Source of the DNA: a virus | Reading direction: 5' to 3' (one strand) | IMG/VR virus record: IMGVR_UViG_3300022707_000398 | Length of the DNA: 36,118 nt | Shown here: one piece after another, positions 461-36,118 of the stretch | How the letters are laid out: the number at the start of each line of letters is the position of its first letter | How positions within the stretch are numbered: the stretch's first letter is position 1 | Position numbers and translations under genes: made by a program | Notes under the pieces: model-generated | What the model saw: only the letters and a program-made list of their open reading frames with translations | What the model was told of the DNA's origin: nothing | The model's database searches: none

Positions 461-471
461 ACTTAACGCCC
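461..471 (+). promoter_or_regulatory. Early-junction motif copy 'ACTTAACGCCC'
   Basis: Starts 2 nt after the stop at 457-459 and 27 nt before the ATG at 488. The CCC...GGGG pairing overlaps SD 'AAAGGGG'. Confidence 0.6.
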
Positions 472-487
472 ATGAAAGGGGTACACC

Positions 488-6024: not shown

Positions 6025-6550
6025 TTCATATCTCACATTAGACTTGGCGACCATGAGCGGCTTTTGCTTGTGGAAGCCGGGATCTAAGCCCACAGTCGGC
6101 ATCATGGATTTAAAGACTTGGTACACTGACAATTACCAAAAAGCCCTGTCTGTCCATTACAATCGGATCAATCGGCTTGTTGTTGAAAACGATGTGAATA
6201 TCATTTGTTTCGAAGCGCCATTGATCGTGCGCCGTGGAGCAAAAACAACATCAACTAAGAACGCTCGTAAACTTATTGGCCTTGCAAACATCGTTGAATT
6301 GATATGTGGTCAGTATGGGATTGCTTGTTATGAAGCCGAGGTTTCACAGTGGCGGAAGCATGTTCTAGGTCACGGACAATTAAGCACTGATGTTGCTAAA
6401 GATAAGGCAATGAAGGTTGCTAAGGGATGCGGACTTGATCCAGCCACACATGATGCAGCGGAAGCCTTCTGTATCATGGACTATTGTGCGGACATTCTGC
6501 ACGAAAAGAAGGACTGGAAAGATCCTGTTAATTTTAGATGGAAACTATAA
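6014..6550 (+). CDS. RuvC-like Holliday junction resolvase (phage type)
   Basis: 'LTLDLATMSGF' (Asp), 'CFEAPLI' (Glu) and 'HDAAEAFCIMDY' (Asp-x-x-Glu/Asp) are in RuvC order. The track start at 6005 is a TTG, so I moved it to the ATG at 6014. Confidence 0.6.
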   Translation: MMSNSYLTLDLATMSGFCLWKPGSKPTVGIMDLKTWYTDNYQKALSVHYNRINRLVVENDVNIICFEAPLIVRRGAKTTSTKNARKLIGLANIVELICGQYGIACYEAEVSQWRKHVLGHGQLSTDVAKDKAMKVAKGCGLDPATHDAAEAFCIMDYCADILHEKKDWKDPVNFRWKL

Positions 6551-6557
6551 ATAATAT

Positions 6558-6687
6558 GGAGTGGGTAGCGCAGTATGGTAGCGCGTCCGGTGCACCGAGA
6601 TAATAAGAAAGAAAGTATAATTAACTTACGGAATTATTATCTTACCAGAGAGGAAGGTCGCGGGTTCAAATCCCGCCCCGCTCCCCA
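6558..6687 (+). tRNA. tRNA-like gene with canonical acceptor/D/T arms, encoded CCA, a G-1:C73 pair (His-like) and about 52 extra nt where the anticodon arm should be
   Basis: Acceptor GAGTGGG (6559-6565) pairs with CCCGCTC (6677-6683). TA precedes the D arm GCGC-AGTATGGTA-GCGC. T arm is GCGGG-TTCAAAT-CCCGC, then discriminator C6684 and CCA at 6685-6687. The 74 nt from 6586 to 6659 give no canonical 5-7-5 anticodon arm. Confidence 0.5.
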
Positions 6688-7550: not shown

Positions 7551-7964
7551 ATGAAATGGAATAAAGAAAATACAGATAAATTAAAAAACCTTGTCGCAGA
7601 TAAAAAAACAGCGCGGCAAATTGGGGATATATTAAACACGACCAAGAATTCGGTTATTGGTAAATGTCGCCGTATGGGGTTTAAGATTAATTCTCTTGTA
7701 TCGTGCGGACCAAAGAGAAAGCGGCCTGCTTTGAAGTCAGATAGAATGGTGTTGTCTAGTATAAAAAAGCATACTGATAGCCACGGTTGGGGCTTGGAAT
7801 TTGATGAAATCATTGAATATTCTGGTCTTCCCGCTGACATTGCGGTGACTTCAGTTAGAAGACTTATTTCTGAAAAAACCCTTAACAAAACAATTTCAAA
7901 TGTTGCGGATCATGTATTTTTTAATGATGCGAGCGTGAAGCAGTTAGGAGTTCCATCATGTTGA
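7551..7964 (+). CDS. gcrA: GcrA-like cell-cycle regulator homolog
   Basis: N-terminus 'WNKENTDKLKNLVADKKTARQIGDILNTTKNSVIGKCRRMGF' matches the GcrA DNA-binding domain pattern (W..E....L..L......A..I...L...+N.VIGK..R.G). Confidence 0.7.
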   Translation: MKWNKENTDKLKNLVADKKTARQIGDILNTTKNSVIGKCRRMGFKINSLVSCGPKRKRPALKSDRMVLSSIKKHTDSHGWGLEFDEIIEYSGLPADIAVTSVRRLISEKTLNKTISNVADHVFFNDASVKQLGVPSC

Positions 7965-8110
7965 ATGATTATTGGAATTTTAAACATGGTTTAGATCAGG
8001 CGAAAGATAAACTTGATACCGAAAATCGGGCCGCTGATAAATGGATCTTAAAAGATCTTAAGCGCGAACTTTCACAATTTAACGCATCAACTGGCGAGTG
8101 GAAATCATGA
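7958..8110 (+). CDS. Hypothetical 50-aa protein
   Basis: My own translation: MLNDYWNFKHGLDQAKDKLDTENRAADKWILKDLKRELSQFNASTGEWKS. It overlaps both neighbours by a few nt (coupled). Confidence 0.45.
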   Translation: MLNDYWNFKHGLDQAKDKLDTENRAADKWILKDLKRELSQFNASTGEWKS

Positions 8111-8487
8111 AAGGTATTAAATTTAGAGGATTTTATAACGGAACCATGTTTAACATCGATCTGATTTCTATTACAGACGGCGGCTGGGACTGTCTTGATT
8201 ATATTGATGGTAAACCGCGCAGGGGAATTAGTTTAACTGCACAGCCACACATTGAAGTCATGCAATATACTGGCCTGAAGGACGAGAACAGCGTTGAGAT
8301 ATATGAGGGGGATATTTGCCGCTTTGATAATGGTGACACGTTTTTAGTACAGTGTGAAACTTGGATTGAATTTTATGGGAAATGGTTGAAAGAGCCAGAA
8401 TGTGAAGATCAGTTAAGGGATTGGTATAGAGCGGGTAACTCAGAAGTAATCGGCAACATTCACGAAAATCCTGAACTTTTAGAATAG
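8107..8487 (+). CDS. YopX-family protein
   Basis: 'EIYEGDI' and the C-terminal 'VIGNIHENPELLE' are hallmark YopX motifs. I moved the start to the ATG at 8107, which forms an ATGA overlap. Confidence 0.75.
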   Translation: MKGIKFRGFYNGTMFNIDLISITDGGWDCLDYIDGKPRRGISLTAQPHIEVMQYTGLKDENSVEIYEGDICRFDNGDTFLVQCETWIEFYGKWLKEPECEDQLRDWYRAGNSEVIGNIHENPELLE

Positions 8488-8910: not shown

Positions 8911-8951
8911 ATATATTGATCTTTAACCGGAAAAGCATATAATGACAAATG

Positions 8952-31536: not shown

Positions 31537-31567
31537 AAGGGCTCCAATTGCGGGGCTCTTTTTTTGT
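31537..31567. terminator. Rho-independent terminator between the convergent late (+) and early (-) operons
   Basis: 'AAGGGCTCC-aattgc-GGGGCTCTT' (9 bp with two G-U pairs) followed by a T-run (tttttttt). Confidence 0.65.
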
Positions 31568-31578
31568 CTGGATGGTAG

Positions 31579-31893
31579 TTATTTTTTGGGAACGTTAAGA
31601 TTACGTCCCCATCCGCTGCAAGTTACTTTAAATTCAAGATGTGATAAAGGGCCATCATCAAACTTAACATCAAAGCCGTATGATAATTCATTCTTATCAT
31701 CGCGTTTTGGTGGGTAGAACTTTCTAACGAGACATTCAGTACCGTTCTTTAATATAAAGTCTGCCCATTTGGGGGCTTCGTCTGCTATCATATCAAATAA
31801 CTGCGCGGCAACTTCATCAAGTATCCTATCAGCTTGAGATTGTGCCTCTTGCATAATAATATCATTGCCGAGATGCGTTATATTATCCGTCAT
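31579..31893 (-). CDS. Hypothetical early protein (104 aa)
   Basis: ORF track; last gene of the leftward early arm; carries a motif copy at its 3' end. Confidence 0.6.
   Translation of the reverse strand: MTDNITHLGNDIIMQEAQSQADRILDEVAAQLFDMIADEAPKWADFILKNGTECLVRKFYPPKRDDKNELSYGFDVKFDDGPLSHLEFKVTCSGWGRNLNVPKK
31588..31599 (-). promoter_or_regulatory. Early-junction motif copy 'CTTAACGTTCCC' with no downstream gene
   Basis: Reverse complement of 'gggaacgttaag'; encodes ..LNVP.. at the C-terminus of 31579..31893; followed by the stop and the terminator. Confidence 0.5.
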
Positions 31894-32308
31894 TGTCTTC
31901 TCCCGCTGCTGTTTGTTGAACGTTACCTAAATCTTCTTCCCACTGAAATTCGCGCTTACCACATTTGGCACATTCTGTTTTTCCGCTTTTTAATAGGTTG
32001 AACTTTACTGACCCGCATTCGCAGACACGGCCTTCATCGTCGTCATCGTCTGTCTTATGACCATACCATTCAACATCATCACCCATTCTTTTAACGCACC
32101 CATTAGGCGCTTCGTCACAATTTGGATAAGACGGGCATCCTAAGTGCTTGTCATCTTCTGTCATTTCATAAAGATACGATCCATCCTTAACACACGCCAA
32201 GGAATTATTAGCCAGACATTGAGCAGTATAAACTCCTTTATTTTCATCGAGCCTTACTATTGCATCAAGCGCCTCTTTATATTCGTCACGTTCTTTACTT
32301 ATTGACAT
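31883..32308 (-). CDS. Cys-rich (zinc-ribbon-like) early protein (141 aa; start moved to MSISKERD)
   Basis: The internal ATG at 32308 lies 32 nt downstream of a motif copy and has SD GGGAGAAAG. The sequence has CxxC-type pairs (CECGS...CAKCGK). The upstream 44 codons overlap the preceding gene. Confidence 0.55.
   Translation of the reverse strand: MSISKERDEYKEALDAIVRLDENKGVYTAQCLANNSLACVKDGSYLYEMTEDDKHLGCPSYPNCDEAPNGCVKRMGDDVEWYGHKTDDDDDEGRVCECGSVKFNLLKSGKTECAKCGKREFQWEEDLGNVQQTAAGEDNDG
31917..31927 (-). promoter_or_regulatory. Early-junction motif, variant 'GGTAACGTTCA'
   Basis: Lies about 35 nt upstream of the ATG at 31893, followed by SD GGGAGAAG. Confidence 0.4.
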
Positions 32309-32450
32309 TGCTTTCTCCCGGTTGTTGTGGAACGTTAAGTATTTCATAACAGTCCTCACACAGAGGCCCAAGTTCATCAATGAACAGATTATCATCTTCA
32401 CAACGTCCTGTCGGATCATCGCATTCGCAACATAATTCAATCTTTGGCAT
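32295..32450 (-). CDS. Cys-rich 51-aa early protein (MPKIELCCECDD...)
   Basis: The internal ATG at 32450 lies 26 nt after a motif copy and has SD AAGGA. There are eight Cys in 51 aa. Confidence 0.5.
   Translation of the reverse strand: MPKIELCCECDDPTGRCEDDNLFIDELGPLCEDCYEILNVPQQPGESNVNK
32329..32340 (-). promoter_or_regulatory. Early-junction motif copy 'ACTTAACGTTCC' (preceded by TATGAAAT)
   Basis: Reverse complement of 'ggaacgttaagt'; 32 nt upstream of the ATG at 32308. Confidence 0.6.
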
Positions 32451-32655
32451 TCTCAGTCCTTTCGTGAACGTTAAGTATGCTTTCAATTGCATACGTTGCT
32501 TCTTCTGGTGTGGGGAAATAATCTTTAGTAGAAAATCTCAATATGTGTCTTTCGTTACCGCTTGGTGTTGGGTGAAGTTGCATGAAAACACCTTGATATT
32601 TTCCGTCCTTTTCACCAGCGCAAGAATAGCCCTCTAGTCCACATGGATACATCAT
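32437..32655 (-). CDS. Hypothetical early protein (72 aa)
   Basis: ORF track; ATGA overlap with the upstream gene. Confidence 0.55.
   Translation of the reverse strand: MMYPCGLEGYSCAGEKDGKYQGVFMQLHPTPSGNERHILRFSTKDYFPTPEEATYAIESILNVHERTENAKD
32466..32476 (-). promoter_or_regulatory. Early-junction motif copy 'ACTTAACGTTC'
   Basis: Lies 26 nt upstream of the ATG at 32450. GTTC...GGAC pairing overlaps SD AAAGGAC. Confidence 0.6.
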
Positions 32656-32972
32656 GACCCGTCCCCTTGTTTGGGAACGTCAAGTAATTCATTATTAACC
32701 CTGAGTTTGAATTGGTTTACCGCATCACTGTCAGGAATAATTTTAGAGATATTCAATCCCGCGTCATACCAAGACCATCCCGCTATAGGGGGTAATTTTT
32801 CCTCGCCGACATAATCTCTAGTGTATAAGATAGCCATTAACGCTTCGTCCAAAGCCTCGCACAGTCGCTTGTTCTTTGTTTCAAGTTCGGTGAAGTCCTT
32901 TGATATTTCTGCCATAAGAGCTAGGCTCTCGTTGCTTGCATAAACGGCATCCTTTTCATAGTAGTTCTTCAT
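32652..32972 (-). CDS. Hypothetical early protein (106 aa)
   Basis: ORF track; SD-like GGAGAAAC upstream. Confidence 0.6.
   Translation of the reverse strand: MKNYYEKDAVYASNESLALMAEISKDFTELETKNKRLCEALDEALMAILYTRDYVGEEKLPPIAGWSWYDAGLNISKIIPDSDAVNQFKLRVNNELLDVPKQGDGS
32674..32685 (-). promoter_or_regulatory. Early-junction motif copy 'ACTTGACGTTCC' plus hairpin GTTCCC-AAACAA-GGGGAC
   Basis: Lies 30 nt upstream of the ATG at 32655. The 3' arm of the 6-bp hairpin is the SD. Confidence 0.6.
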
Positions 32973-33175
32973 TACTGTTTCTCCTGAACGTTAAGTTTTT
33001 CAAAAAACCTACATTCGTTAAAATAATTATCTAGTGGTGCGCCATTATAAGCGAAATGCAAATGTCTTAAAACTGGTGAGGGCATACTACTTCTTAACCA
33101 CATACATCTGCCTGTGGCATACTTAGCTAGTTGGTGATGTTTGCATTTTCTACAATCTTCCAGATTATCACTCAT
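32972..33175 (-). CDS. Cys/His-containing early protein (67 aa)
   Basis: ORF track; ATGA overlap upstream; 'CRKCKHH...C...C'. Confidence 0.55.
   Translation of the reverse strand: MSDNLEDCRKCKHHQLAKYATGRCMWLRSSMPSPVLRHLHFAYNGAPLDNYFNECRFFEKLNVQEKQ
32985..32996 (-). promoter_or_regulatory. Early-junction motif copy 'ACTTAACGTTCA'
   Basis: Lies 24 nt upstream of the ATG at 32972; the SD AGGAG follows immediately. Confidence 0.6.
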
Positions 33176-33342
33176 GGCTTTTCTCGATCTAATATTTTTT
33201 TACATTTAGGGCAAGTGACATTTTCATCAATTACAACCCAAGCTGATTTTTTAAGATTAATTTTCCTTGGCCTTTTAAAACAAAGTGCGGAAACATCCCC
33301 ATTAGGATTTATATGTTTTGCTTTATGATATACTTTAGTCAT
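33172..33342 (-). CDS. Zinc-ribbon-like 56-aa early protein (MTKVYHK...CPKCKKIL)
   Basis: The internal ATG at 33342 of ORF 33172..33633 lies 24 nt after a motif copy and has SD GAAGGA. Confidence 0.5.
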   Translation of the reverse strand: MTKVYHKAKHINPNGDVSALCFKRPRKINLKKSAWVVIDENVTCPKCKKILDREKP

Positions 33343-33354
33343 GGTGTGTCCTTC

Positions 33355-33366
33355 GGAACGTGTAGT
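33355..33366 (-). promoter_or_regulatory. Early-junction motif copy 'ACTACACGTTCC' (preceded by TATGAAATT)
   Basis: Lies in a different reading frame from the other leftward copies relative to the annotated ORF. In the alternative gene model it is intergenic. Confidence 0.5.
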
Positions 33367-33376
33367 AATTTCATAA

Positions 33377-33585
33377 TTAACATGGATATTCTCCATGTGG
33401 GTTACAGTTTTTACAAGGATAACCGTTATCACAATCTTCTGGCTCATTACAACCGCGACACATATCATCACAGCAGCCGTGAAACCATCCCTCTTGGTGA
33501 CGCAACCAATCCCACCAAAGTCGTCGTCATCTAATGGTCTATCACCATCATTGTCGAATGCTTCATTCCAATGTTCATCATCCAT
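33377..33585 (-). CDS. Acidic N-terminus plus Cys-rich C-terminus protein, only obtained with a -1 frame change near 33511-33516
   Basis: Frame A from ATG 33585 gives MDDEHWNEAFDNDGDRPLDDDDFGG... Frame B, open from 33526 to the stop at 33377-33379, gives ...DWLRHQEGWFHGCCDDMCRGCNEPEDCDNGYPCKNCNPHGEYPC*. See the corresponding finding. Confidence 0.3.
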
Positions 33586-34531
33586 TTTCGACCTCACTAA
33601 CGAATAGTTGTTGCAATATGTAAACAATAACATTGATCGTCCATCCGTTGCCGAGCAGCTTATAACGCTGCGTGTTGCTTACATGGTTTGTGTAGTCTTC
33701 CGGCACATTTTGTAATCTCTCACACTCGACCGGGGATAGTCTTCTTAATGAAATGTCATTATCTTTAATCCAGGCTAAGAAGTTGTTTTGTTGCCAGGAG
33801 CTTGCCGATAATGTCGGAACCTTGCCGTTAATAGCTCTTGCGCCGGCCGGGTTATTCCCTCGACCGATGAAATGTATAAATGTAGTGCCGCTATCAAGTG
33901 ACAATTGCCCTGAATTATTTTTGGTGTTTAGCGTGCCGGTCTTGTCCGGGCTTATTCTTTTTATTGCTGTATTTGAAATTATCAAACTGCTGCAATCCTG
34001 TTCGTGGTCAACAATATCTTTAAGCAATATTCCTGTATCTTCTGGCTGATTGAAAGCCCAATTCGCCCAGTAATACCGTTTTCTATTTTGTGCACTTACC
34101 AGTGATGAATTTATCAAAACTGGCTGAACTCCAAGATATTCACTTATTATGTCCCTACTTCTCCCGGTCATTTTGACATTCTCTAATAAGAATTTAATGC
34201 CCGGGTTAAGCTTCTTAATATGTTTCCATATGTCCACAAAAACAAAGAATAGCTTACTTCGTACATCATCAAACTCAAGCTGCAACCCGGAAAAACTGAA
34301 GCCCTGACAAGGCGACCCGGCAATAAGTAAGGATATACTTGACCAGTCAATATCCCATTCCCGCCAATTCAAGATATCCCCTAATTGTATAGTACCCGGG
34401 TAATTAGCTTGTGTGACGATGTTCGCATACTGATCAATTTCGCTTGAATAGTATTTATCAACCTTAATCCCTGCTCGATCGAGAGCAAGCGCACCACATG
34501 ACATGCCGTTGAATAAAGAAAGGACGTTCAT
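33578..34531 (-). CDS. DNA (cytosine-5)-methyltransferase, orphan
   Basis: Motif I 'LSLFNGMSCG', IV 'GSPCQGFS', VI 'LENV', VIII 'SAQNRKRYYW' and X 'LLGNGWT' in canonical order. No adjacent restriction endonuclease candidate. Confidence 0.85.
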   Translation of the reverse strand: MNVLSLFNGMSCGALALDRAGIKVDKYYSSEIDQYANIVTQANYPGTIQLGDILNWREWDIDWSSISLLIAGSPCQGFSFSGLQLEFDDVRSKLFFVFVDIWKHIKKLNPGIKFLLENVKMTGRSRDIISEYLGVQPVLINSSLVSAQNRKRYYWANWAFNQPEDTGILLKDIVDHEQDCSSLIISNTAIKRISPDKTGTLNTKNNSGQLSLDSGTTFIHFIGRGNNPAGARAINGKVPTLSASSWQQNNFLAWIKDNDISLRRLSPVECERLQNVPEDYTNHVSNTQRYKLLGNGWTINVIVYILQQLFVSEVENG

Positions 34532-35046
34532 AGCTCTGCCTTTGCAATACGTCTTATAGTAGCCTCAGACGTGCTATATTTAGCCGCCAGCTCACCAATA
34601 TCCATATTATCATCAACGAGTGCCTGAATTTGTTTTGCGTGCTTCCACACCTTTGATTGTGGCTTTCCTGAGTTATTCTTACCCATTTTAGCAACCCGCT
34701 CTTTCATGGCTTTCTCAATTTCCATACAAGCGTCATAGTTCTTTTTAGCTTCTTCATAAGTAAAATCATACAGTGTATCGGTCTTAATGCTGTAGATACC
34801 TTGTGCGCCAACCTCGGCTACTGCTAGGCTCACTTTGGGCCACCAATTTTTACCTATAATAGCTATTGAATAAACAACCAACACGTCATCGGCATGCCGT
34901 AAGTCTTCAAGCGCGGCGTTCAATGCAACATACTTACTATCGTCTTCATGTATTGTATTGCAACCGTATTCATCAAGTGTTTTTCGCTGTACGCTTTTAA
35001 TCGGAACGTCCGAGTTTTTTTCTACAAAGCCTATTTTATGTGTCAT
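34528..35046 (-). CDS. Resolvase/invertase-fold protein lacking catalytic residues, with C-terminal HTH
   Basis: 'MTHKIGFVEKNSDVPIKSVQRKTLDEYGCNTIHEDD...ADDVLVVYSIAIIGKN' aligns by eye with serine-recombinase 'GYARVSTxxQ...Q...L...G...IFxD...GDxLVVxxLDRLGR'. R-V-S-T is replaced by E-K-N-S and DRLGR by IAIIGK. The C-terminus 'IGELAAKYSTSEATIRRIAK' is HTH_7-like. Confidence 0.6.
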   Translation of the reverse strand: MTHKIGFVEKNSDVPIKSVQRKTLDEYGCNTIHEDDSKYVALNAALEDLRHADDVLVVYSIAIIGKNWWPKVSLAVAEVGAQGIYSIKTDTLYDFTYEEAKKNYDACMEIEKAMKERVAKMGKNNSGKPQSKVWKHAKQIQALVDDNMDIGELAAKYSTSEATIRRIAKAEL

Positions 35047-35078: not shown

Positions 35079-35115
35079 TTGACATTACTTTATGACAATG
35101 CTAATAATATGTCAA
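35079..35115. promoter_or_regulatory. Overlapping divergent sigma70-like promoters with inverted-repeat operator
   Basis: Rightward: TTGACA (35079-35084), 17 nt, TAATAA (35102-35107). Leftward: TTGACA (35115-35110), 17 nt, TAAAGT (35092-35087). The two -35 boxes form the inverted repeat TTGACAT...ATGTCAA, with a third half-site ATGACAA at 35092-35098. Confidence 0.55.
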
Positions 35116-35130
35116 TACTAATTATGAAAT

Positions 35131-35151
35131 ACTTTACGCCCGTTATCGGGC
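35131..35151 (+). promoter_or_regulatory. Early-junction motif copy 'ACTTTACGCCCG' plus hairpin GCCCG-TTAT-CGGGC in the 5' leader (preceded by TATGAAAT)
   Basis: Lies downstream of the predicted rightward promoter and 36 nt before the ATG at 35167, so the element is expected to be transcribed. Confidence 0.55.
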
Positions 35152-35166
35152 ACAGAAAGGGAAACC

Positions 35167-35526
35167 ATGTTAAATAAAGAAGAAAAGAAACGTATCAAGA
35201 CGTTAGAGGACAAATTAGATGCTACCGATAAGTCTGTGGGTGATCGTCTTAACAAAGCTATGATCGTTGAAATGCAGAAAATACAACAGGAAGAGTTAGA
35301 TAAAAGCAATAAGGAAAAGCTAGACACTGTAAAACGTATGGTTAAATCTGTACTGGCAGAAAGTGGCGTTGTTGACGTTATTGAGGCACAATTTAAACGC
35401 TTCTTAGATGATGCTATGGAGCACGGCAACGACGAGGGTTATAGTAGACATTCCTCTATGCGTTATGGGGGTAGTCATAAAAAAGAAGAATTTAATTATC
35501 CGTCACTAAACGATTTATTTAATTAA
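35167..35526 (+). CDS. Coiled-coil early protein (119 aa)
   Basis: ORF track; SD AAAGGGA; first gene of the rightward early arm. Confidence 0.65.
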   Translation: MLNKEEKKRIKTLEDKLDATDKSVGDRLNKAMIVEMQKIQQEELDKSNKEKLDTVKRMVKSVLAESGVVDVIEAQFKRFLDDAMEHGNDEGYSRHSSMRYGGSHKKEEFNYPSLNDLFN

Positions 35527-35527
35527 T

Positions 35528-35549
35528 ACTTAACGCCCGATGTGGGGCG
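35528..35549 (+). promoter_or_regulatory. Early-junction motif copy 'ACTTAACGCCC' plus hairpin CGCCC-GATGTG-GGGCG
   Basis: Starts 2 nt after the stop at 35524-35526. It is followed by the tRNA-like gene rather than a CDS. Confidence 0.55.
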
Positions 35550-35598: not shown

Positions 35599-35690
35599 AA
35601 TAATGTAGCTCAGAGGATAGAGCAGCTTTCGAAATCTTTGTGGTGAAGAAAATAGTCAGTGTGTCATGGGTTCGAGTCCCATCATTATAA
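35599..35690 (+). tRNA. tRNA-like gene with canonical D and T arms, an AT-only acceptor stem (A1-A72 mismatch), no encoded CCA and a 41-nt central region with no canonical anticodon arm
   Basis: Acceptor AATAATG (35599-35605) / CATTATA (35683-35689). TA precedes the D arm GCTC-AGAGGATA-GAGC. T arm is ATGGG-TTCGAGT-CCCAT. The 41 nt from 35625 to 35665 are about 19 nt more than a class I tRNA needs. Confidence 0.45.
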
Positions 35691-35698
35691 ATAGCAGG

Positions 35699-35708
35699 AT
35701 TAACGCCC
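35699..35708 (+). promoter_or_regulatory. Early-junction motif, variant 'ATTAACGCCC'
   Basis: Lies 9 nt after the tRNA-like element. It is followed by CCCCACATCG (35712-35721), the inverted complement of CGATGTGGGG (35538-35547). Confidence 0.45.
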
Positions 35709-35730
35709 TGCCCCCACATCGTAATCTATA

Positions 35731-35740
35731 ACTTAACACC
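35731..35740 (+). promoter_or_regulatory. Early-junction motif, variant 'ACTTAACACC'
   Basis: Lies 20 nt upstream of the ATG at 35751, followed by SD GGAG. Confidence 0.4.
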
Positions 35741-35750
35741 GGAGAATATC

Positions 35751-35972
35751 ATGTTTAAGTGGTATAAAAAAAGACAAAAGAAAAAGATTAATGATATAGC
35801 AAATGCCGTTGTGCAAAAGCTCCATGACCAACAAGGATGGCACAAGTTTTTACCTCCTGTTGCAATGAGAGATAAGATTTATATGGTCACAGAAAACGGC
35901 TCAATCTATTGTCTGTATTATGATGAAGTGCAACGAACTGAAATGGTGATGAAAATCACAGAAATAAATTAA
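35751..35972 (+). CDS. Hypothetical early protein (73 aa)
   Basis: ORF track; SD GGAGAA. Confidence 0.6.
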   Translation: MFKWYKKRQKKKINDIANAVVQKLHDQQGWHKFLPPVAMRDKIYMVTENGSIYCLYYDEVQRTEMVMKITEIN

Positions 35973-35974
35973 TC

Positions 35975-36118
35975 ACTAAACGCCCCACGGGGCAGGGAGA
36001 ATATAAAATGGAAATAGATGAAAAAACATTTACGGCTGTAAGAGATAGCCAAAAGATACTAGCTGAATATATTGTGCCAAATAGTGGTATTTCAGACCAT
36101 AATGTTATTAGTAGGTTA
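35975..36118. repeat. Terminal direct duplication, copy 2 (identical to 1..144; includes a truncated second copy of CDS 34..459 from 36008)
   Basis: See copy 1. Confidence 0.9.

Follow-up and report, generated by a model that had tools for sequence, protein, structure and literature searches.

Several groups of phages carry short repeats at the junctions of their genes. The stoperators of Cluster A mycobacteriophages, which are the sites of the L5 gp71 repressor, are short (11–13 bp), asymmetric sites present in many copies at gene junctions, often over stop codons; more than 20 of them occur genome-wide, including in the structural genes, and the same sequence serves as the operator at the early lytic promoter (PMC9283540). 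They are bound by a monomeric immunity repressor of a temperate phage, consisting of a helix-turn-helix (HTH) plus a stoperator domain, and they provide a tested precedent for orientation-dependent roadblock sites at gene junctions (PMC9283540). In Cluster K mycobacteriophages, the start-associated sequence (SAS) and its extended form (ESAS) comprise a repeat of unknown function that includes the core of the Shine-Dalgarno (SD) sequence and lies 3–7 bp from the start codon (PMC3203893). The promoter early stem-loops (PeSLs) of T4-type phages are larger, about 100 bp, and contain a full early promoter (−35, −10, and an AT-rich upstream region) and a terminator-like stem-loop, each cassette being its own transcription unit; recombination between flanking elements gives rise to excised mini-circles of the cassettes, and the logic of PeSLs has been compared to that of integrons (PMC2839356, PMC4122927). 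Here we describe a box of 11–12 nt at the junctions of two divergent arrays of tiny early genes in the virus record IMGVR_UViG_3300022707_000398 of IMG/VR, whose whole stretch of 36,118 nucleotides is referred to as the window. The box works like stoperators, SAS and PeSLs but is a member of none of them, and the concept is not unprecedented.

Relatives of the window were gathered through homologs of the 172-aa protein at the head of its leftward operon (referred to as the head protein, or regulator) and with a probe for the conserved leader, which together gave eight further lineages. In the window, the consensus 12-mer (ACTTAACGTTCC) has 10 matches at up to two mismatches vs. 2.6 expected, and none of 100 shuffles reaches 10; six of the 10 are on the minus strand at 31,589–33,366, inside 1.8 kb. 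When a position weight matrix (PWM) is built from seven leftward copies, those copies score 21–29 bits, and the next best site on either strand of the window scores 14 bits. The pattern ACYNNNCGYYC is matched 16 times vs. 3.5 expected, with 12 matches in the two arrays, every one of them along transcription, and the other four at the chance level. The copies are restricted to 31589–33608 and 35131–1136, about 3.9 kb of the 36 kb, and the structural genes are not included. In the arrays of eight lineages (19 kb), a strict pattern gave 48 sense matches (2.5 per kb) and a single antisense match, vs. five matches in 65 kb outside the arrays (0.04 per kb per strand), and about 70 copies of the box are known over at least nine lineages. 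An earlier note on this DNA had claimed that all copies point in the direction of transcription, and had asked for the density of matches in the late genes. The orientation was borne out both in the window and across the lineages, and the late genes hold nothing comparable.

The two arrays diverge from one hub. Exactly 144 nt are repeated at the two window ends (1–144 = 35975–36118) and contig L002 bridges both, so the window represents a complete, circularly assembled genome of 35,974 bp. The leftward operon consists of the gene for the 172-aa HTH head protein (34528–35046, minus strand), a C5 DNA methyltransferase gene (33578–34531, minus strand) located between the regulator gene and the first box, and eight tiny genes, and it ends at a terminator at 31537–31560. 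The rightward operon runs across the window ends, consists of six tiny genes and a tRNA-like element, and ends at a terminator at 1,151–1,182. Neither array has promoters of its own. Both are read from one conserved pair of strong, overlapping divergent sigma-70-type promoters at 35079–35115 (P_R at 35079–35108 on the plus strand and P_L at 35115–35087 on the minus strand), predicted from a promoter scan and a comparison of leaders. Good promoters were found in the hub only, and the total over the window was 16 vs. 14.0 in shuffles. As P_R and P_L overlap fully and each −35 element lies on the other's start site, binding of RNA polymerase should be mutually exclusive. There is no box at the junction of the regulator and methyltransferase genes, and none of the tiny array proteins of the window has a match to a Pfam or PHROG family.

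Eight boxes of the leftward type (L-type, referred to as c1 to c8) lie on the minus strand. The first, c1 (ACTATTCGTTAG, 33597–33608), is degenerate and lies where the methyltransferase gene ends, 11 nt ahead of the ATG at 33585. It is backed by relatives, since its variant ACTATTCG and its tail CGTTAGTGAGGTNGAAAATG recur in L007, L010, L016, and L029, the tail being common to the window, L016, and L029. The second, c2 (ACTACACGTTCC, 33355–33366), is intergenic and is contained in an 11-codon mini-ORF (open reading frame, ORF; 33374–33339) whose stop overlaps the ATG at 33342. The next three are c3 (ACTTAACGTTCA, 32985–32996), c4 (ACTTGACGTTCC, 32674–32685), 3 nt before which the homology with L004 ends, and c5 (ACTTAACGTTCA, 32465–32476), whose tail GAAAGGACTGAGAATG is also present at junctions of L007 and L029. 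The exact consensus is found in c6 (32329–32340), followed by c7 (AGGTAACGTTCA, 31917–31928) and by the terminal copy c8 (TCTTAACGTTCC, 31589–31600) in the last codons of the final array gene, behind which comes the terminator with no gene downstream. In the window, a box starts 23–35 nt before the ATG and ends 11–23 nt before it, with variable spacing, and the SD is a separate, variable purine run.

All eight of these copies had been listed in the earlier note, including the weak one at 33608–33597 that the relatives now validate; its coordinates for c8 were shifted by one (31600–31589 is needed). It had also argued from a different reading frame of the copy at 33366. This argument was wrong in detail: the upstream gene ends at 33377, and the mini-ORF that contains the copy is in the usual register. 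L002 is otherwise 99.9% identical to the window, which lacks 7 nt (GGCCTTT) at ~33,490–33,500. The deletion shifts the frame of a Cys-rich 71-aa gene (minus strand, 33585–33377), and could be a natural variant or an assembly error.

The element is thus real at the leftward junctions where the earlier note had placed it, but that note missed eight to nine plus-strand copies in the divergent operon. These rightward (R-type) boxes, ACTTAACGCCC, usually with a small GC hairpin directly after, start at 35131, 35528, 35698, 35731, 35975 (=1), 461, 737, 854, and 1125. R0 (ACTTTACGCCC with the hairpin GCCCG-TTAT-CGGGC, 35131–35151) lies in the 5′ leader, about +17 from the predicted P_R start. On the transcript predicted for P_R it covers roughly +17 to +27, it is located ~55 bp upstream of P_L, and no box overlaps any promoter hexamer (−35 or −10). 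R1 with its hairpin (35528–35549) is past the stop of the gene at 35167–35526 and ahead of the tRNA-like element (35599–35690, plus strand), which has a 30-nt insertion in its anticodon arm and makes up a non-coding “cassette” between boxes R1 and R1b. Two degenerate R-type boxes, GATTAACGCCC at 35698 and ACTTAACACCGG at 35731 (together 35698–35744), lie between the tRNA-like element and the gene at 35751. R2 (ACTAAACGCCCCACGGGGC, 35975–35993) is the same copy as that at 1–19, where the window ends overlap. It is followed by R3 with a hairpin (461–482), R4 with a hairpin (737–755), the TAA of whose box is the stop codon of the gene at 488–742, the degenerate R5 (GCTTAACCGCCC, 854–865), whose TAA is the stop of the ORF at 770–859, and the terminal copy R6 (ACTATACGCCCC, 1125–1136) behind the last gene and before the terminator at 1151–1182. 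The R-type copies are non-coding, and in several of them the TAA of the box doubles as the stop codon of the upstream gene. There is a possible leader mini-ORF at 35125–35177 on the plus strand (ATG AAA TAC TTT ACG CCC ..., MKYFTPVIGHRKGNHVK), which passes through R0 with its hairpin and enters the first gene; as its ATG reads ATA in L013, conservation of this mini-ORF is unlikely.

An information profile built from 40 leftward-type and 22 rightward-type copies is asymmetric and bipartite, with AC...ACGTTC around a free internal triplet. Information peaks at 11 positions, AC-Y-N-N-A-C-G-T-T-C in the leftward and A-C-T-W-W-A-C-G-C-C-C in the rightward copies. Around the box there is a weak A/T-rich preference upstream (GAAATT) and a purine-rich SD downstream, the tails being far less conserved, and there is no −35/−10 information in this profile. 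The leftward box has a fixed codon register, xCT-NAC-GTT, in 37 of 40 copies, 4–14 codons before the upstream ORF terminates. Each of the three intergenic copies (c2 and two in relatives) falls within a mini-ORF that ends on the start codon of the next gene. All 38 valine codons are GTT (genome usage 56%, p = 4e-10), and 34 of 36 middle codons are of the NAC type, with C in third place (genome usage 33%, p = 9e-15), whereas the amino acid encoded by the middle codon is variable (N, D, H, Y, F, or S). With GTT and NAC fixed despite this varying residue, the leftward box is not a peptide motif, and selection acts on nucleotides, not on the peptide, as had been argued earlier. Further, ACTTAACG is common to the rightward copies, where it codes for nothing. 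A literature search for this string returned primers and unrelated sequences only, and no description of the box.

The two types differ in folding. Leftward-type junctions fold no better than shuffles (mean z +0.1, n=39; 15% with z < −1), with two outliers, the copy at 32685 (z −3.0, a 6-bp stem with GGGGAC) and the L007 copy at 8946 (z −2.3, a downstream purine-rich stem). Rightward-type junctions have a mean z of −1.4 (n=16). In minimum-free-energy folds of the single sequences, chosen as the loop lengths differ, the rightward hairpin starts at box position 8 every time, has a stem of 3–6 bp, and does not pair the box itself. Its fifth pair is G-C (window, L029), C-G (L015), A-U (L027, L029), or G.U (a second L015 copy), which are compensatory changes. 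The loops (4–9 nt) are unrelated in sequence and the SD is mostly left free, with the 3′ arm overlapping it in some copies (window 461–482; the L030 leader). The rightward junctions are thus composites of box, stem-loop, and SD. No Rfam family was found at the boxes, and pairing between the box and the tRNA-like RNAs gave weak duplexes only.

An array of n genes has n+1 boxes, leader and terminal copies included; even in L027, with one gene, there are two. With a box ahead of each gene and a box behind the last, every cassette is bounded on both sides. The boxes are not bound to translation starts, as they are also present behind the last array genes, before terminators, and around the tRNA-like gene, so the description of the box as an element of start codons did not hold. 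This also sets it apart from SAS. Like SAS, the box is an asymmetric repeat in one orientation that is confined to the non-structural region and precedes genes of different families across related genomes. It differs in being separate from, and upstream of, the SD (10–24 nt from the ATG), in standing behind last genes and by the tRNA-like element as well, and in having no 17-bp inverted repeat of the ESAS type.

The relatives comprise L004, L007, L008/L009, L010/L011, L013, L015, and L016, together with the more distant L027 and L028/L029 (head protein 30%) and L030 (~31%). The head-protein homologs used to gather relatives are 70–91% identical to that of the window, and over the eight lineages the identity ranges from 30 to 91%. 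Nearly every junction in them has a box along transcription, and this holds even for L029 with its 30%-identical regulator. The flavors of the arrays are kept as well, CGTTC marking the array that follows the head gene and CGCCC the divergent one; L030, which suggests partial divergence, has AAACGCCCA boxes in its leader and divergent array, and ACGTTC boxes are absent from it. A leader copy of the box is kept in all lineages, and a 32-nt leader block that includes R0, GTCAATACTAATTATGAAATACTTTACGCCCG, is identical in the window and L029 despite the divergence of their head proteins. Conservation of the hub ends at the 3′ end of R0 one way and at the first leftward box the other way, the latter lying directly past the regulator (L008, L010, and L016) or past the regulator and the methyltransferase (window, L007, and L004). 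On the minus strand of L030, at 8654 and 9907, an identical 24-nt sequence, TTTAAACGCCCAATAGAAAGGCA, is found in the leader and before a gene ~1.2 kb downstream, so that one L030 array contains a duplicate of a whole junction.

The genes between the boxes are not kept. Array genes show no homology between lineages (blastp at 1e-4), and the head protein is the sole protein common to all lineages within 10-kb flanks. At the DNA level, the window resembles L007, L008, or L010 (~75% identity) only in the head gene and promoter region, plus a 34-nt junction match in L007, and the arrays of the window and L004 have in common the body of a 106-aa array gene and nothing else. That gene is 79% identical until 3 nt before c4, and beyond a common GACGTT the sequences are unrelated. 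The 20-nt junction CGTTAGTGAGGTNGAAAATG leads from the methyltransferase to gene X in the window and from the head gene to an unrelated gene in L016 (95% over 20 nt), and is seen again in L029. Similarly, GTTAGTGAAGGGACTGARRATG is present three times in L007, with close tail variants at c5 of the window and once in L029, and a junction of ~25 nt recurs between different gene pairs. As homology stops at the box and junctions are portable, the boxes are cassette boundaries in a descriptive sense, whatever other role they have, and cassette exchange at the boxes is partly shown. The near-identical pairs (L008/L009, L010/L011, and window/L002/L003) have no cassette indels and are hence uninformative.

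Searches beyond these lineages gave little. A search of 185,579 GTDB species genomes yielded no relative of the head protein; a profile of the regulator found nothing in IMG/VR or GTDB genomes and one already known contig in JGI metagenomes; two single queries, an array or head protein each, found nothing in IMG/VR; and a profile of the distant regulators gave no further relatives. The leader probe had nine matches in GTDB genomes, all by chance and without a box after them. In Pseudoalteromonas phage H6/1, the nearest isolate (portal 37% identical), the box is absent and the early region is different. Contig L005 (1–869), which encodes a 60%-identical relative of the 106-aa array protein, has no ACGTT box; instead, TTAAAGGGAGACGA(N)ATG occurs at three of its junctions, which appears to be just a strong SD context. 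An exact match to a rightward box with its hairpin (19 nt) in L006 was judged to be chance, as a single copy in an unrelated, higher-GC viral contig. That region (6207–6260) has one exact ACTAAACGCCCCACGGGGC with an inverted repeat alongside (GCATATTACTAC...GTAGTAATAACGC), about the chance expectation.

The one conserved candidate for a factor acting on the box in trans is the head protein. Its putative layout is that of a small serine recombinase with a C-terminal HTH, from which the catalytic Ser and Arg are absent, and it is not a tyrosine recombinase. The catalytic residues of small serine recombinases are Ser10 and Arg8/Arg68/Arg71 in gamma-delta numbering. Aligned with gamma-delta resolvase and Hin, the head protein is collinear with both. 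At the position of Ser10 it has Asn in the window group, Cys in L028, and Arg, Val, Thr, Ala, Ser, or Lys in more distant relatives, and the position of Arg8 is Glu or Lys and that of Arg68 is Ile or Val. The family is small (39 representatives at E ≤ 1e-3 among 1.84 billion proteins), and the search did not retrieve the resolvase superfamily. Roughly 17 distant homologs of the regulator (P0016–P0048, P0054–P0065) are full-length, and the presumed recognition helix has the pattern S-x-A/S-T-I-x-R-I. The head protein itself has no Pfam match, no PDB sequence match, and a weak hhalign match, along with a PHROG match to a DNA-invertase C-terminus; PF02796 (HTH_7, the resolvase HTH) is recorded in distant family members. 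A structural model of low confidence (predicted local distance difference test, pLDDT, 63) has the order of secondary structures of a small serine recombinase, and its top 10 Foldseek matches are Sin, Tn3, and gamma-delta resolvase in complexes with DNA (best E 6e-4, at a template modeling (TM) score of ~0.3 and pLDDT 63). The head protein is best read as a putative resolvase-derived DNA-binding protein without catalytic activity.

We tentatively favor, as the leading though far from settled reading of these sequences, that the box is an operator or roadblock site of this resolvase-like HTH protein and doubles as a linker for cassette exchange. The box would be recognized as duplex DNA by the HTH protein encoded at the head of the leftward operon. 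Sitting on the leader site (+17 to +27) and on each junction past its own gene (with or without the methyltransferase), the protein would block RNA polymerase in an orientation-dependent manner, so that both arrays would be shut off while the regulator's own gene would remain on. As the leader site is ~55 bp upstream of P_L, the same binding event could favor P_L over P_R. Because every cassette has the same box and a related tail-SD linker, these would also provide patches of identity for the gain, loss, and swapping of cassettes between phages. The explanations are not mutually exclusive, since a functional box would automatically serve as an exchange patch. The box is a candidate site of the HTH protein because a conserved motif between divergent genes, beside the gene of a conserved HTH protein, is where the site of that protein is classically expected, because the first leftward box directly follows the genes that would stay on, because the bipartite information pattern resembles protein–DNA recognition, and because the regulator, with its HTH, is the only protein that all lineages have in common. 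Among the alternatives raised in the earlier note, a binding site for one factor of the early regulon and a recombination cassette boundary fit the comparative data best.

Stoperators are the closest parallel to such an operator. As with stoperators, the boxes are asymmetric, oriented along transcription (48 sense vs. one antisense), placed at junctions, and overlapping with stop codons, with one copy near the early promoter and a small phage HTH protein encoded nearby. The differences are that the boxes are in two arrays only and not genome-wide, that none lies on a promoter hexamer (the nearest copy is at about +17 to +27 of the predicted P_R transcript), that the candidate binder is resolvase-like in layout instead of a repressor with HTH and stoperator domain, that integrase or lysogeny is not evident and no prophage copies were found in GTDB genomes, and that there are two flavors, one with a hairpin of the RNA type.

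Several observations weigh against the operator. The link between protein and box is guilt by association, and the sample is biased, as most relatives were found via the regulator or the leader. The rightward hairpin, with its compensatory changes and mean z of −1.4, points to an RNA-level or single-stranded DNA component that a duplex-DNA operator leaves unexplained, and the two 3′ flavors (TTC and CCC), each strongly conserved, would be odd for one binding protein. The promoter hexamers are overlapped by no box; no integrase was found among the window genes and no copies in GTDB genomes, so silencing of the lysogeny type is unsupported. In L030, whose regulator is a distant family member, the rightward boxes are retained while ACGTTC boxes are absent, and the regulator was modeled at low confidence (pLDDT 63).

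A second possibility, to which we give less credence, is a signal at the RNA level. Some host or phage factor would then recognize the box, as single-stranded RNA, in the polycistronic early transcripts; examples would be an endoribonuclease separating cistrons or a regulator of stability or translation. The clamp hairpin would present the box in the untranslated rightward spacers and cap the downstream product, and the leftward box would be kept unstructured by ribosomes. This agrees with the rightward hairpin always starting from box position 8 with compensatory changes across lineages, with the leftward copies being always translated (37 of 40 in frame and the other three in mini-ORFs), with the location of the box 10–24 nt before start codons and directly upstream of the SD, with boxes on both sides of the tRNA-like element, and with the strict orientation along transcription. 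On the other hand, the lineages offer no apparent conserved candidate for an RNA-binding factor, and nothing in Rfam matches. RNase E is specific for AU-rich sites, which does not fit variants such as ACCAGACG that are not AU-rich. A single mode of recognition is also hard to see when box positions 9–11 are single-stranded UUC in one array and base-paired CCC in the other, and L030 expresses a comparable array behind its regulator gene although ACGTTC boxes are absent there. The terminal copies, lying before terminators, have no cistron downstream.

At R0, an RNA signal would bring to mind the lambda-type nut site. This consists of boxA and a boxB hairpin, with one site per early operon and a conserved loop recognized by the N protein. 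In R0, likewise, a 5-bp GC hairpin comes after a short single-stranded box, some tens of nucleotides downstream of an early promoter; but the rightward operon has eight to nine copies, their loops vary in length and sequence, there is no conserved N-like protein, and the leftward type is free of hairpins. Some other parallels, namely complementarity of ACUUAAC to the 16S h35 loop or the T7 epsilon enhancer and likeness to boxA or RYYYAAC, were considered and dropped, as the variants ACCAGAC, ACTATAC, and ACTACAC break them.

It is rather unlikely that the box is a recombination linker only, without a role in expression, in which the box and its tail-SD linker would be patches where exonuclease/annealase systems swap ORFan cassettes, recombinants at the box being viable as they keep reading frame, stop codon, and SD. 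The arrays are fully reshuffled between lineages with their junctions kept; the homology of the window with L004 ends 3 nt before c4; the junction CGTTAGTGAGGTNGAAAATG joins different gene pairs in the window and L016, and other tail families recur in L007 and L029. The n+1 boxes per n genes, with terminal and leader copies, would also fit, and the fixed codon register and array-specific flavors are as expected of separate exchange pools. There is the PeSL precedent (PMC2839356), and recombination genes are encoded by the phage. However, exchange driven by homology should conserve longer, uniform stretches instead of 11 positions with a free internal triplet, and 11–12 nt are short for homologous recombination. 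Moreover, there is no active site-specific recombinase, the resolvase-like protein being without its catalytic Ser and Arg, and no close pair differing by a cassette indel was found.

Like PeSLs, the junctions described here are conserved composite elements beside ORFans in hypervariable regions, differences between genomes break at the element, and the rightward type combines a conserved box with a stem-loop. Unlike in PeSLs, the cassettes are promoterless and read from the hub, the core is 11 nt, and the leftward type lies within coding sequence in a fixed frame.

More doubtful is a platform for gene capture resembling an integron, made up of a domesticated resolvase without catalytic residues, divergent promoters, and two box-bounded arrays of promoterless ORFan cassettes. 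Here, the resolvase-derived protein would bind and synapse the boxes, thereby silencing the arrays and directing excision and insertion by phage recombination enzymes. If true, this would be a dedicated cassette-shuffling system for phage accessory genes, so far undescribed. In integrons, attC is an imperfect inverted repeat of 57–141 bp (R''-L''...L'-R') that folds as single-stranded DNA, and IntI is a tyrosine recombinase. The likeness lies in promoterless cassettes in direct orientation, a promoter in the platform, a site at the 3′ end of each cassette and by the platform, and a head gene of a recombinase family. The differences are the lack of an attC-type palindrome (leftward mean z +0.1; rightward hairpins of 3–6 bp), a head protein that is no tyrosine recombinase, and variants such as ACCAGAC and ACTATAC that do not fit RYYYAAC, although ACTTAAC does.

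The earlier note had proposed that the 3′ half of the box occludes the SD, CGTTCC pairing with the purine-rich SD of the next gene as a translational operator, which we consider improbable. Stems of this kind are found at 32685 (z −3.0) and at L007 8946 (z −2.3), and the 3′ arms of some rightward hairpins overlap the SD. As a general property, however, the pairing did not survive folding, which largely refutes it for the leftward type (mean z +0.1 over 39 junctions), where these two copies stand out; most rightward hairpins leave the SD free, and there is no SD that could be occluded at the terminal copies or at the copy ahead of the tRNA-like element.

Still less plausible is a reiterated promoter, another suggestion made earlier, with each box being −10-like or factor-dependent and giving one transcript per tiny gene. 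The box does lie upstream of nearly every gene and along transcription, and the PeSLs of T4-type phages are promoter-containing junction elements (PMC2839356). Nevertheless, −35/−10 information is absent around the box, and the promoter scan has no excess over shuffles and no sites at junctions. The gap from the box end to the ATG (10–24 nt) is too short and variable, and a start site would land in or past the SD. The leader copy is downstream of a strong promoter, copies also stand behind the last gene, and no phage RNA polymerase or sigma factor was found among the window genes. Lastly, that the box is a by-product of a conserved C-terminal peptide (..E-L-L-N-V-P/Q..) of small proteins, as the single register of 37 of 40 leftward copies and a few synonymous variants (CTA for CTT, AAT for AAC) might suggest, is scarcely credible and was not borne out, being refuted by the fixed synonymous third positions (GTT in 38/38, NAC in 34/36) with a varying middle residue, by rightward copies that share ACTTAACG but are non-coding or stop-supplying, and by the intergenic leftward copies.

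A site of restriction or methylation was also considered and rejected: ACGT (observed/expected 0.77) and AACGTT (13 vs. 15.6) are not notably avoided, and the rightward flavor is without ACGT. Two other words are strongly avoided over the whole window, TGCGCA (0 observed vs. 6.5 expected) and AGCGCT (1 vs. 7.2), which suggests pressure from host restriction enzymes with those specificities. The repeated word ATTGAAAACA is dispersed in plus-strand coding sequence and is unrelated to the box.

As for the rest of the genome, it encodes a terminase, a P22-type portal, a major head protein, a P22 gp10-like protein, an endolysin, and replication and recombination genes. PS_L5 has only the methyltransferase in common with the window. 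Besides the tRNA-like element of the rightward array, there is a second one at 6559–6684 (plus strand), and both score above the Rfam tRNA gathering threshold (44.7 bits at 6559–6684 and 39.6 bits at 35599–35690). Their anticodon-arm insertions are 63 and 30 nt, respectively, ARAGORN misses both, and ATAACTTAAC comes after each. The rightward operon on the replication side includes genes for a GcrA-like protein (7551–7964, plus strand; PF07750, 29.5 bits) and a YopX protein (8098–8487, plus strand). Regulators of the GcrA type are familiar above all from Alphaproteobacteria, but it is in phages of Gammaproteobacteria that the virion proteins closest to those of the window are found.

Tiny early ORFan genes house the host-takeover and anti-defense functions of phages, and their co-regulation and exchange are poorly understood beyond a few model groups. 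This case offers a compact, delimited box in two flavors, a single conserved, recombinase-derived candidate partner, and homology that ends at the box. If the protein binds the box, control by roadblocks of the stoperator type would extend past actinobacteriophages to podophages with a P22-like virion module, through an unrelated protein. Should the box serve mainly for exchange, it would join PeSLs as the second worked-out case of modular evolution mediated by linkers, here inside coding sequence and in a fixed frame. In both cases, the box offers a practical way to find accessory-gene arrays in metagenomic phage contigs.

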